A DNA stretch of 21,625 nucleotides from a virus (Duplodnaviria; Heunggongvirae; Uroviricota; Caudoviricetes), in IMG/VR virus record IMGVR_UViG_2645727608_000013. One strand, 5' to 3'. A program made the position numbers and the translations under genes. Below are positions 5,113 through 8,483 of the stretch, piece after piece (within the stretch, counting starts at the first letter, position 1; each line of letters begins with the position of its first letter). The notes below the pieces were generated by a model. The model did not search any database. It was not told the DNA's origin and worked only from the letters and a program-made list of their open reading frames with translations.

Positions 5113-6303
5113 TTAATTGCTGTTAACCGAAGTGACCAGATTTGCCAGGTATTTATCGGTAATACGCTGGCGCAGGGTCAGGTTTTCGAGAGGAGGCACC
5201 GGTGTATAGTCGTAGTCGATATACAGTTTTCCGGCCTTGAGGGTTTCCGCATCATTGGATTCTTCGCTGAACCAGCAGGTCGCATCCACGATATAGCCGT
5301 TTGTTTTCAGCTCACGGAATTTGGCATTGATGCCGTCAACGATGTCGCGAATCAGCGTTGCAGTGATGGGCTTGTCCACCGCCCACATGTGCGCCTCAGC
5401 CATCGTGTCGGCCAGCACCTGCGCGGTGCGGGTGTAGTTTTCAAAGAGGAACAGCGGGTCATCAGAGCAGGTACGGTTACCCCAGAAGCGGAAACCGTCA
5501 CGGCGAATCAGCGTTGTGACACCTGACTCGTTCAACAGGTCAGCATCGGTGCCGGACTCCTGCAAATCCCAGAAAACAGAGGCACTGATGCCGGTAACAC
5601 CGTTTACCCCGACGTTGGACAGCGTTTTATGCCAGCCCTGCTCCTGGTCGATTTTAGCGCGCAGGCCCAGCGCACGGGCGGTGGCATACGCGGTGGCGGT
5701 GGTACTGGCGACCGTATCCCATGCGAGGAAATCCGGCCAGATGACCATCAGCTCACGCTGGCTGAAATTCTGGCGGTAGGCTTTCACCTCGGAAATGGTC
5801 TTACAGCCCCATGCGCTGATATACCCGAAAGCGCGCAGCTTCTGACAGACTGATGCCAGTGCAACAGCCACCTCTTTGGTGTCCAGTCCCGGCACGCCGA
5901 GAATACGCGGTTTAACACCGGTTACTGACTCCGCCGCCAGCAGGGCTTTCAGTCCGGTGTACTGACCGTTTTCGTCGGTGGTGCCGATGATATTGGAAAC
6001 GGTCTGCGCGAGTTTCGTTTCTTCGTCTTCGCCGGTGCCGTCTTCCACACGTACGACAACGGTGACCGGTTTTGACTGGTCAGCGATGGCCTGTAACGAC
6101 GCCGCCAGCGTGCCTTTTTTACCGGCCTTTGCAATTGCGCTCTGCACATTGGTAATCAGCACCGGTTTATTGAGGGGGAAGATTTCCGCATCCGCATCGC
6201 TGGCCGTGCAGACCATGCCAACAATGGCGGTGGATACGGTGGAAATGACGCGGGTGCCGTCGTTAATCTCCTGCACCTGCACGCCGTGATGATAGTCACT
6301 CAT
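5113..6303 (-). CDS. FI: Contractile tail sheath protein (P2 gpFI-like)
   Basis: 396-aa ORF matching P2 FI; GGAG Shine-Dalgarno 8 nt upstream of the ATG (minus strand, 6312..6315). Confidence 0.9.
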   Translation of the reverse strand: MSDYHHGVQVQEINDGTRVISTVSTAIVGMVCTASDADAEIFPLNKPVLITNVQSAIAKAGKKGTLAASLQAIADQSKPVTVVVRVEDGTGEDEETKLAQTVSNIIGTTDENGQYTGLKALLAAESVTGVKPRILGVPGLDTKEVAVALASVCQKLRAFGYISAWGCKTISEVKAYRQNFSQRELMVIWPDFLAWDTVASTTATAYATARALGLRAKIDQEQGWHKTLSNVGVNGVTGISASVFWDLQESGTDADLLNESGVTTLIRRDGFRFWGNRTCSDDPLFLFENYTRTAQVLADTMAEAHMWAVDKPITATLIRDIVDGINAKFRELKTNGYIVDATCWFSEESNDAETLKAGKLYIDYDYTPVPPLENLTLRQRITDKYLANLVTSVNSN

Positions 6304-6375
6304 CCGTTTAACTCCGTGGTTAATGGGTGCAACTATTTTCTGTTGGGCAGTGCATAAGACGCTATTTGACCTGAC

Positions 6376-6393
6376 TGGTCAGTGGATGAAACA
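6376..6393 (-). promoter_or_regulatory. Candidate Ogr-type late-promoter activator site upstream of FI (TGT-N12-CCA, one mismatch to the TGT-N12-ACA dyad)
   Basis: Minus strand reads TGT-N12-CCA at 6393..6376, centred about 82 nt upstream of the FI ATG, which is about -55 if the transcript starts ~25-30 nt upstream of the ATG; P2 late promoters carry a TGT-N12-ACA element near -55 (recalled, not verified). Confidence 0.3.
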
Positions 6394-6394
6394 A

Positions 6395-6427
6395 CAGATT
6401 AAAGAAAAGGCGGGCAACTCGCCCGCC
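6395..6427 (-). terminator. Rho-independent terminator on the minus strand (GGCGGGC-GAGUU-GCCCGCC followed by UUUUCUUU)
   Basis: Perfect 7-bp GC stem at 6409..6415 / 6421..6427 with a 5-nt loop; on the minus strand it is followed by a T-rich run (plus strand 6395..6408 = cagattaaagaaaa). It sits between the AT-rich cargo segment and the FI promoter region. Confidence 0.55.
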
Positions 6428-6621
6428 CGTCCTGATTTGTACTCACTCATTTTTCAACTGACAATTTACATAGCCCAAACGCTATCAAATCTGACAGCCT
6501 ATTTTGAGCGAAAAGCAGACATTAGCATCCTTCTTATAGAAAAGGTAAACCTGCTTCTATTTGTTAATCAATAGAGAGTAAGTCACAATGGCAGATACGA
6601 ATATCGGCTGGAGAAATTAAA

Positions 6622-7704
6622 TTGAAACCAGAGCAAATGAAAAACAGGGAAGAATTAACTAGCTTTGCAACGAAACTTGCTACTCAAATCAAGATGCAAA
6701 CCAGCAGCAATTTAAATGATCTTTCTACAGCCCAAGAGAGCTCGCTATTGCCTCTAATCAATCATGCCTGGGGAGAGCAGTTTGAGGATATGAATAGGAT
6801 ATCCCAAAACTACCCTGGTCTCGACTATGTGCAACCGGGAAAGCGCTTAGGTTTGCAAATGACTGCCACTGCAAGAAAGGTTAAGTATCAGAAAACATTA
6901 GACAAACTTCGAAATAATGAGAAGTTAAAGGGTAAGTTTGACGAGATTTGGTTTTTCGTCCTCACGGCTGAACGCCTACCTGATAACGTACGTGAACACC
7001 CTGACGATTTTCAGTGCAAATATTTCACATTGTACGACCTAGTCGAAAAGGTAATGGGACAGACTTTAGAATTTCAGCGTGATTTTTTGACCCTTGCCCG
7101 GAAAGAATACTCGGATTATTTCTCTCCTGGGGACGTTGCTTTCAATCAGGGGTATTGTGTATCAGAAAACAAGCCGATCCCCTTTGACTTGAGTCTTTTC
7201 AACGCGTTAATTCATACTAATGAATGGTTTGATGATGTTGACGAAGGTGAGCAGATCGTATATGAATTTCTAGAACTTTTTAAAAATAGACTGCGTCAAT
7301 GCACTTTATCTGCTAGAAATCTTTTAAGCAAAATTATCAGTGAGATAAATATACCGAAGAGTACAAGCACGAAAATCGAGTTTCCTGAAAAGCAACTTTT
7401 CGGGCCACTAATGATTGACGATACAAACTATCAATCTTTTTCAAAAGACCTTGATGATTTGTTCGAGATGAGTCTTATTGAACGATGGGACAATTATGTT
7501 GGAATGTACTATAAGGGTGATGATGCATATATCAAAAATGAACGTATGATCAGCGTGTCATTTCCAAAGATTGAACCCGAAATGAATCTGTATGCGGCGT
7601 TATATATCTTTTATGAAAAAAATCATGATATTGCAAAACTTGTGAACGCAATTGAAAATAGTGATTTTTCTCTGCTCGCTGACAGCACTTGCCAAAATAA
7701 TTAG
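6622..7704 (+). CDS. Uncharacterised 360-aa protein occupying the P2 Z/fun hotspot; candidate anti-phage defence or exclusion gene
   Basis: Only long ORF in the ~1.65 kb between FI and G; opposite strand to the flanking late genes; visibly AT-rich against a GC-rich backbone; probable TTG start at 6622 with GGAG 8 nt upstream (first ATG at 6637); acidic, no obvious transmembrane segment, no Walker A, no clear catalytic motif. Confidence 0.75.
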   Translation: MKPEQMKNREELTSFATKLATQIKMQTSSNLNDLSTAQESSLLPLINHAWGEQFEDMNRISQNYPGLDYVQPGKRLGLQMTATARKVKYQKTLDKLRNNEKLKGKFDEIWFFVLTAERLPDNVREHPDDFQCKYFTLYDLVEKVMGQTLEFQRDFLTLARKEYSDYFSPGDVAFNQGYCVSENKPIPFDLSLFNALIHTNEWFDDVDEGEQIVYEFLELFKNRLRQCTLSARNLLSKIISEINIPKSTSTKIEFPEKQLFGPLMIDDTNYQSFSKDLDDLFEMSLIERWDNYVGMYYKGDDAYIKNERMISVSFPKIEPEMNLYAALYIFYEKNHDIAKLVNAIENSDFSLLADSTCQNN

Positions 7705-7880
7705 TTAGTAAAAGGATGCATTTATGCTCTTAGTTACTCACTCTGTTGAATTTATTTTAAGTTATTAATATAGATATGGGCTTATATATCTTTAATAGAA
7801 ATGACTAGCGTGAAAAATATGGGGCTAACTGGTCTGCCTCTCTTTTGACCAAGACAATTTGCTGGAAAACTTCCGCTCTT

Positions 7881-7920
7881 GGCACAGAGCGGACTGTCAG
7901 ATTAGACTTTACTCTGTGCC
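7881..7920. other. Imperfect hairpin (9-bp stem GGCACAGAG / CTCTGTGCC, ~22-nt loop) between the cargo ORF and G; weak candidate terminator
   Basis: Inverted repeat at 7881..7889 and 7912..7920; no strong T-run on either side, so terminator function is uncertain. Confidence 0.25.
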
Positions 7921-7955
7921 ATAGATATGTAAGCTCCCACCAGAGCTCATACAAC

Positions 7956-8483
7956 TTACTGCGGCATTTCCGGCCATTCAGGATTTGCAGGATCCACACG
8001 GCTGACCAGAACACTGTAGCGTTCCCATGCCTCCAGTCGACTGCGCTCCTCATCTGTTGCCATATTCAGCCTGACAGCGCGCTCCAGCGGCAAAATCACG
8101 GATTCAGCTTCGGAAAGTAAAGTTGCCTTTTGTGATTCTGCCAGTTGCTGCTGTTCGTCTGCCGTATAAATCCGCTTAATCACGGCACCATCCTTAAACA
8201 TCCATTTACCTGAGTCATCAGCACGTCGGTTTGCGGTAATATCAGGAACCTCAACAACGCTAAAACCTTCAGGGTTAAGCGTTGAAGCATCTCTGGTGAT
8301 GCCGACAATTATATTATTCTCGTCGTAAACAATCTTTATCGTGTCTTCCTGAAAATTACTTACTTCCTCATACCATTTTTTTCCGTCTTCAGACCATAAC
8401 CAGATAACATCAAAATTTTTTGTCAGTTGATATTGGGCAACAGTTTTGGGATTACCCGCAGTAATATTTTTTAAATGCTGCAT
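7956..8483 (-). CDS. G: Tail fibre assembly chaperone (P2 gpG-like)
   Basis: 175-aa ORF, same length as P2 gpG; immediately downstream of H. Confidence 0.85.

Follow-up and report, generated by a model that had tools for sequence, protein, structure and literature searches.

What does the gene at positions 6622-7704 encode, a gene that runs against the tail genes on both sides of it, and what may its product do for the lysogen that carries it? The window in which we address this question is the whole stretch of DNA that was analysed, with a length of 21,625 nucleotides, and represents the late-gene half of a P2-like (Peduovirus) prophage. A preliminary description, made from the letters of the sequence, had correctly delimited the reading frame and had quoted and numbered its motifs (PGLDYV at residues 65-70, LGLQMTATARKVKYQK at 76-91, FDEIWFFVL at 106-114 and DDLFEMSLIERWDNYVGMYYKGDD at 278-301). 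It saw no recognisable catalytic signature in the protein, and left the choice between a divergent nuclease and a wholly new fold as one that could not be made from sequence alone.

Our analysis leads to a protein of two domains, in which a SMEK domain of the Mrr-like nuclease type is followed by an acidic domain predicted to be a winged helix. The domain identities are near certain. This architecture of 340-360 amino acids is undescribed, and its N-terminal domain is already known and annotated. As to function, we give an about even chance to the reading that the protein is a stand-alone defence nuclease expressed by the lysogen, with the C-terminal domain acting as a sensor of infection or as a restraint on the nuclease.

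A coding gene in the cargo slot of P2-like prophages

The reading frame starts with TTG and ends with the stop codon TAG at 7702-7704. Its dN/dS against four orthologues (Table 1) indicates purifying selection, hence it is a genuine coding gene rather than a chance reading frame. Full-length orthologues with 69-89% identity occur in Enterobacter, Citrobacter, Morganella and Klebsiella, and they too start with a codon for Leu. The RefSeq product at this position has the same 360 amino acids and bears the name 'SMEK domain-containing protein'.

Homology to phage P2, as measured by blastn, ends at 6525 and restarts at 7880, so the island between these positions stands where P2 has its segment with the Z/fun cargo gene. 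PHROGs identify the flanking genes as FI, for the tail sheath (5113-6303), and G, for tail-fibre assembly (7956-8483), both on the minus strand and thus opposite to the cargo gene. The GC content is 37-40% over 6500-8000, against about 56% in the backbone. The segment 6300-8000 shares 99.9% identity with Escherichia phages vB_EcoM-12474II-V and with prophages of E. coli O145:H28, and the gene is present in this serotype and in related Enterobacterales. When 5426 complete E. coli genomes were searched, the flanks matched in 1040, and the whole cargo region was found in only 21 of those 1040. Wherever the identical protein occurs, it sits in the sheath/G slot of a P2-like prophage, in company with varying tail-fibre variants. 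Published hotspot surveys recognise the P2 Z/fun segment as a hotspot of accessory genes, whose cargo is mixed and not composed of defence genes alone, and by its location the gene studied here is non-core cargo of this variable hotspot. It resembles P2 Z/Fun in its position between G and FI and in being cargo of the lysogenic-conversion type, but it lies on the opposite strand; homology to the P2 protein of the Z/Fun slot was considered and dropped, as BLASTP gave E=7.9 and no sequence similarity.

The region beside the slot is variable as well. Prophages with the identical SMEK gene encode tail-fibre proteins of 554, 642, 696 or 701 amino acids, and the segment 7880-9000, which covers the 3' end of the tail-fibre gene and gene G, has a GC content of 44-46%, again lower than the backbone, with a P2 identity of only 87.6%; together these observations indicate that swapping extends to the receptor-binding module adjoining the cargo slot. 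One E. coli genome (GCA_030162175.2) carries a degraded P2-like prophage, in which the sheath gene is truncated and borders on ogr and the genes from tube to D are absent, with the SMEK gene and the tail-fibre genes still intact.

Possible partners of the gene within the region were considered and dropped. Rfam gave zero matches in 6200-8100, island included, which removes a non-coding RNA from consideration. The reading frames 7805-8053 and 7845-8120 lack a RefSeq annotation and a Pfam or PADLOC match. The same is true of an 83-amino-acid frame at 6323-6574 (plus strand), which moreover lies in the flank shared with P2, upstream of FI, and overlaps the minus-strand terminator at 6428-6398. 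This frame matches phrog_11095, of unknown function, at 2.5e-50 and is unannotated in the phage record as well; it may be a recurrent miscall rather than a gene.

Table 1. Features of the cargo region, with positions in the window
Feature	Position	Strand	Basis
Intrinsic-terminator-like hairpin with T-run	6398..6428	- (tail-gene strand)	9-bp stem, 7 GC pairs, TTTCTTT tail
Cargo island in place of the P2 Z/fun segment	6526..7879	.	blastn against phage P2, composition profile, PHROGs neighbours, annotated records
Promoter-like element: TTGTTA 6561-6566, 17-nt spacer, CACAAT 6584-6589	6561..6589	+	conserved upstream alignment
Shine-Dalgarno GGAG 6610-6613, 8-nt spacer, TTG 6622-6624	6610..6624	+	GGAGAAA and TTG invariant in 7/7 contexts
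CDS, SMEK domain-containing protein	6622..7704	+	ORF call; phrog_36490 full length 1e-257; dN/dS 0.14-0.21
SMEK / Mrr-like PD-(D/E)xK nuclease domain, residues 1-168; two long helices, then alpha-beta-beta-beta-alpha-beta core	6622..7125	+	
Predicted active-site codons: E39 6736-6738, D68 6823-6825, Q79 6856-6858, T81 6862-6864, K88 6883-6885	6736..6885	+	conservation
Interdomain linker, residues 169-181, predicted disordered	7126..7164	+	pLDDT <50; variable, gapped in family alignment
C-terminal acidic domain, residues 182-360; alpha1 229-241, beta 252-255, alpha3 270-282, wing 287-312, two terminal helices	7165..7701	+	

An Mrr-like nuclease domain and its putative active site

The N-terminal domain can be recognised by its sequence. 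Pfam SMEK_N (PF21941) matches residues 16-119 with E=1.6e-19 (70.6 bits against a cut-off of 27) and NCBIfam NF033859 matches residues 7-100 with 1.9e-24 (85.3 bits against 30), while the profile of the family finds the solved Mrr domain of the Mrr-APAZ pAgo from Kordia jejudonensis (PDB 26bh) at 8.1e-13. With these matches, and with a name for the domain already in RefSeq, the statements that the protein lacks a recognisable signature and cannot be assigned from its sequence do not stand. In the Argonaute literature SMEK is a database label for an Mrr-like PD-(D/E)xK effector nuclease fused to APAZ, and AspBHI is given as the nearest characterised nuclease to this effector. The PADLOC model Aga_REase (Argonaute-associated REase) is matched at 4e-18, only over model positions 3-113 of 463, and no full-length model of PADLOC 2.0 matches the 360-residue protein. 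The search gave no match to TIR, SIR2 or other NADase-type domains, and the NADase idea was dropped.

The structure prediction and neighbour search proposed in the preliminary description were carried out. A model from 10 close homologues was unusable, with a pLDDT of 57, and was superseded by one based on a diverse family alignment of 30 sequences, which has a mean pLDDT of 87, a pTM of 0.51 and two confident domains. In this latter model the N-terminal domain takes the restriction-endonuclease alpha-beta-beta-beta-alpha-beta fold, and the segment FDEIWFFVL, described before as strand-like, is predicted to form the core strand beta4. The best structural neighbours of the modelled domain are AspBHI, MspJI, LlaBIII and FokI, which are cleavage modules tethered to DNA readers. 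Foldseek searches against PDB and BFVD gave no match at E<=1e-3, the weak top matches being Mrr-domain and winged-helix proteins.

When 1.84 billion representative proteins were searched with the profile, 760 matched at E<=1e-3, and residue conservation was counted on the SMEK_N region in 159 matching proteins among those retrieved by then. E39, D68 and Q79 are each conserved in 157 of the 159 representatives, T81 in 154 (with Ser in 3 more) and K88 in 158, followed by N58, N63 and P65 in 148-155. The window protein keeps all these residues, in the family pattern E...N...N-x-P-x-[ILV]-D...Q-x-T...K. In the model these residues fall where a restriction-endonuclease fold would have them: a helix carries E39, D68 opens a strand, the next strand holds Q79 and T81, and K88 sits on the helix that comes after it. 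The restriction-endonuclease-like core that had been suspected is thus borne out, for D68 and the strand LGLQMT are conserved active-site elements of the family. Among the residues suggested for mutagenesis, D68 was well chosen, being conserved family-wide, but D107 and E108 are conserved among close relatives only.

At the (D/E)xK position the protein reads Q79-M-T81, in which Thr takes the place of Lys and an invariant Lys follows seven residues downstream. It was right to say that the literal motif is not evident; however, the arrangement is no sign of degeneracy but a family-wide variant, since QxT...K runs throughout SMEK_N and the Kordia Mrr domain has the corresponding 'D...FQITST......K'. 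In the PD-(D/E)xK superfamily it is known that catalytic residues can change place. K88 may accordingly take over the role of the canonical Lys, as far as the sequence can suggest. The PD-(D/E)xK topology suggests a catalytic role for E39, D68, Q79, T81 and K88, and that E, D, Q and K are so strictly kept speaks for catalysis; the N-terminal domain would be a metal-dependent nuclease that cuts DNA. The exchange of Lys for Thr could also mean that the domain is a catalytically dead relative of nucleases, serving as a non-enzymatic binder or regulator such as a decoy or scaffold; the superfamily does include inactive domains, and the literal (D/E)xK is absent here. This we regard as very unlikely, because QxT...K is near-invariant over the 159 diverse SMEK_N proteins and is kept in the Kordia Mrr-APAZ system as well, which is reported as a guide-dependent nuclease (Kim et al. 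2020, as cited in the Argonaute literature).

An acidic C-terminal domain modelled as a winged helix

Residues 182-360 are modelled as helix, helix, beta, short helix, helix, a long beta-hairpin 'wing' and two helices, so that a wholly new fold finds no support in this half either, though the half has no sequence family. The structural neighbours of the modelled domain are winged helices, namely the ORC2 C-terminal domain (6.2-6.5) and BigR, ArsR, SmtB and MarR (5.6-5.9). Sequence and profile searches found no relative of the domain in Pfam or PDB and returned noise only (neurolysin at 0.009 and single-member winged-helix matches). A word-indexed search with the C-domain profile returned fragments of its own family only, never joined to a different N-terminal domain. 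The HMM of the domain matches 46 of 161 retrieved proteins, of about 320-360 amino acids, and in 45 of these 46 the domain is C-terminal, a pattern that marks a distinct two-domain family; the exception, P0148 (502 amino acids, E 2.3e-4), carries it at 373-454, behind a SMEK_N region that is itself internal.

The C-domain is less conserved than the N-domain, with the lower identity in 81-93% of pairs and an omega of 0.15-0.27 against 0.11-0.16, both domains being under purifying selection. A domain-wise comparison of identities gave no sign of domain shuffling within the two-domain family. R232, L280 and F349 are near-invariant in the C-domain.

What would such a domain bind? One answer is that the protein works as a Type IV-like modification-dependent restriction endonuclease, the winged helix recognising DNA that is modified or foreign, and the Mrr-like domain cutting close to it, like Mrr in reversed order. 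E. coli Mrr itself is a winged helix paired with a D-QxK nuclease. The neighbours of the nuclease domain are tethered to DNA readers, a lone gene without a methyltransferase suits Type IV logic, and one relative, discussed below, adjoins other restriction genes. Nevertheless we consider this answer improbable in view of the charge of the domain. The C-terminal half of the window protein, rightly called acid-rich before, has a pI of 4.5 and a net charge of -13, and among the 26 members having the domain it is acidic in 23 (pI 4.2-5.2, net charge -5 to -18). The would-be recognition helix at 270-282 (SKDLDDLFEM) is net negative, R232 is the sole invariant basic residue, and no sequence similarity links the domain to DNA-binding winged-helix families or to solved structures. 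An acidic domain with a negative recognition helix speaks against the classical winged helix that reads DNA, and favours a role in binding proteins or in regulation within the molecule, as the preferred reading of a restrained or infection-sensing nuclease would have it. With its pTM the model leaves the arrangement of the two domains uncertain, hence autoinhibition is put forward as a hypothesis.

Initiation and putative expression signals

The signals upstream of the gene are conserved together with it. In an upstream alignment of seven unrelated genomic contexts, TTTGTTAATCAAT and the hexamer xAxAAT are kept, and the element TTGTTA-N17-xAxAAT, the GGAG and the TTG start are invariant. The unit common to the hosts is 6555-7704, consisting of the promoter-like element and the coding sequence. 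The copy in the window agrees with the promoter consensus at 8 of 12 positions, which is under the threshold of the promoter scan, and it is the conservation that suggests that the element may act as a promoter.

The intrinsic-terminator-like hairpin of Table 1 sits in the flank common to P2. As this minus-strand terminator lies beyond the cargo gene, transcripts of the late tail-fibre operon would cross the gene antisense, and such late transcription possibly dampens the cargo gene during the lytic growth of the prophage itself. Inside the gene there is also an antisense sigma-70-like site (TTGATA-16-TATAGT, 7508-7535, minus strand) with 10 of 12 matches. It is probably due to chance, for the 3 sigma-70-like sites found in the region are not above the 4.0 expected in shuffled sequence.

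Distribution and gene neighbourhoods

The two-domain family has members in Serratia, Rahnella, Proteus, Providencia, Klebsiella, Enterobacter, Aeromonas, Pseudoalteromonas and Acinetobacter, all named merely 'SMEK domain-containing protein'. A Morganella P2-like prophage carries a copy of 72% identity in the same sheath/G slot. Another copy, with 73% identity, lies beside the primase gene of a P4-like satellite contig (L022, 554-1636), where Psu, Ogr/Delta, Ash and AlpA are present, so the cassette is common to P2-like helpers and their satellites; the interval between primase and att of P4 is described as a minor defence hotspot in a published survey. Further copies are found on Klebsiella IncF plasmids and on a 12.5-kb Acinetobacter plasmid. 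A copy on a Citrobacter Rep3 replicon adjoins an Mrr_cat gene, and one in a Serratia fonticola island adjoins GmrSD and a type III R-M system. An extra search of genome contigs added only one further locus, and searches of viral contigs with three distant members found nothing.

PADLOC models of defence systems or of candidates are matched by several immediate neighbours. These include PDC-S31 (a DUF2971 protein, 4e-21), which in both Serratia loci lies directly downstream, PDC-M26A (2e-21), and two ATPases, one AriA/Old-like and one Ppl/LmuB-like (3e-21); a PvuII-type endonuclease is also among the neighbours. Other contexts are neutral and do not resemble defence, for example those with aldo/keto reductases on a Klebsiella plasmid or with phn or glyQS genes next to the copy. 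All this neighbour evidence comes from about a dozen contexts and is anecdotal rather than a statistical enrichment. Over these contexts, in seven genera, no partner gene is conserved.

In S. marcescens and S. fonticola the DUF2971 protein has 319 amino acids (L019 9129-10088 and L021 9145-10104), starts 40-44 nt downstream of the SMEK gene, matches PDC-S31 at 3.8e-21 and has no counterpart in the window. The SMEK protein of this Serratia clade has 39% identity to the window protein, and the pair represents a two-gene variant or else two single-gene systems side by side.

The neighbourhoods bear on two further explanations. The first holds that the protein is an effector which needs an unlinked partner, a pAgo or a STAND sensor, and is inert alone. 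Indeed all characterised or annotated settings of SMEK_N are driven by an attached sensor, either APAZ-pAgo or a STAND NTPase, and a DUF2971/PDC-S31 gene stands immediately downstream in the Serratia clade. But the lack of a conserved partner, the movement of the closest orthologues as a single gene with its own promoter, and the presence of an own conserved C-domain of 180 residues that co-evolves with the nuclease domain make this explanation most unlikely in our judgement. The second explanation takes the gene as a selfish factor of maintenance or competition, that is, an addiction-type toxic nuclease with the C-domain as a built-in antidote, or a means to exclude rival plasmids or satellites. 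The cassette stands alone in prophages and in a P4-like satellite as well as on conjugative IncF and small Rep3 plasmids, which would fit such a factor, and the weak TTG start kept in every context is consistent with a tight dosage control of a toxic product. We hold it for rather unlikely, as there is no separate antitoxin and as the defence hotspots of phages and satellites and the defence neighbours suit antiviral cargo at least equally; the selfish and antiviral roles are not mutually exclusive.

Fusions that place SMEK_N at the N-terminus of NB-ARC, NACHT and nSTAND NTPases with TPR also occur (P0038, P0067, P0083, P0090, P0098, P0099 and P0125), hence the effector repertoire of this domain is wider than the Argonaute literature describes.

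Proposed function

For the defence reading we propose the following scenario. A horizontally acquired and self-contained cassette occupies the P2 Z/fun cargo slot, where its own promoter would drive transcription against the late tail operons, and the product could thus be made in the lysogen. The SMEK domain would be the effector, a metal-dependent DNA endonuclease acting through E39, D68 and Q79 with K88 from the following helix. The acidic winged helix would be a regulatory or sensor module and not a DNA reader, keeping the nuclease off until infection, whether because it binds a phage component or because the protein is autoinhibited. On infection the nuclease domains would assemble and cut DNA, and the lysogen population would be shielded from competing phages.

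What the comparisons establish are the domain identities, the intact motif of the family, the modelled fold, the mobility of the cassette as a single gene, and its hotspot and defence neighbourhoods. We infer the nuclease activity, the defence role and the role of the C-domain as sensor or autoinhibitor from these comparisons, and the defence role rests on association. The fusion of SMEK_N to APAZ of Argonaute systems, or to NB-ARC, NACHT or nSTAND sensors with TPR, indicates an effector module which is switched on by a separate sensor. The Z/fun hotspot, the copy in the P4-like satellite, the Morganella copy in the sheath/G slot and the neighbours with defence models speak for defence, and the absence of a conserved partner, together with a promoter, Shine-Dalgarno sequence and TTG that travel with the gene, speaks for a cassette of a single gene. 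On the other side stand the lack of a full-length PADLOC 2.0 model, the mixed cargo of Z/fun, the contexts of metabolic genes and the Thr in place of the canonical Lys.

A more specific mechanism is conceivable, which we put forward as a speculative and unlikely one. The acidic winged helix might mimic DNA and serve as an in-cis inhibitor or bait for the SMEK nuclease, to be captured by a basic phage protein of the DNA-binding or anti-restriction type, which would free and oligomerise the nuclease. If true, this would be a new mechanism of abortive infection or immunity by a single protein, and the smallest known sensor-effector with SMEK, which elsewhere needs an Argonaute or a STAND ATPase.

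If the gene is protective, a compact single-gene defence of about 1.15 kb with its promoter would be added to the cargo repertoire of P2, P4 and plasmids. It would mean that a SMEK/Mrr-like effector can be controlled by an acidic winged helix of about 180 residues, without an ATPase or a guide, and would offer a small and tractable system for how such nucleases stay silent and then switch on. If it is inactive against phages, it would be an ordinary, already-named domain protein in a hotspot of mixed purpose.

Comparison with known systems

Literature searches for the protein, its accession, its PHROG and 'SMEK domain' in a defence setting gave nothing beyond the Argonaute papers; they found no paper on the architecture of SMEK_N with an acidic winged helix and no experimental report of protection for any member. 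Compared with Mrr, MspJI and AspBHI, the Type IV enzymes with the motif D-(Q/E)-x-K, the window protein has the D68 and Q79 of the motif, but the Lys of their QxK is T81 here and the conserved Lys, K88, which may substitute for it, comes seven residues later. Its second domain also differs: it is C-terminal, acidic with a pI of about 4.5, and unrelated in sequence to Mrr_N, SRA-like readers or other known DNA-binding families, although a winged-helix fold is predicted.

With SPARMA of Kordia jejudonensis the protein shares a homologous N-terminal domain, the pattern D...QxT...K and an effector ahead of the regulatory region. In contrast to that system, it has 360 amino acids without APAZ, its C-terminal region being an unrelated acidic winged helix in the model, and no short Argonaute (MID-PIWI) gene adjoins it here or in about a dozen contexts. 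Pfam and NCBIfam detected no NTPase domain, P-loop or TPR/repeat sensor in the window protein, which is only a third to a quarter of the size of the Avs-like STAND NTPase proteins with SMEK_N, NB-ARC, NACHT or nSTAND and TPR. SMEK_N alone is carried by conjugative plasmids of about 40 kb in Salmonella, E. coli, Klebsiella and Morganella (plasmid matches H54-H70).
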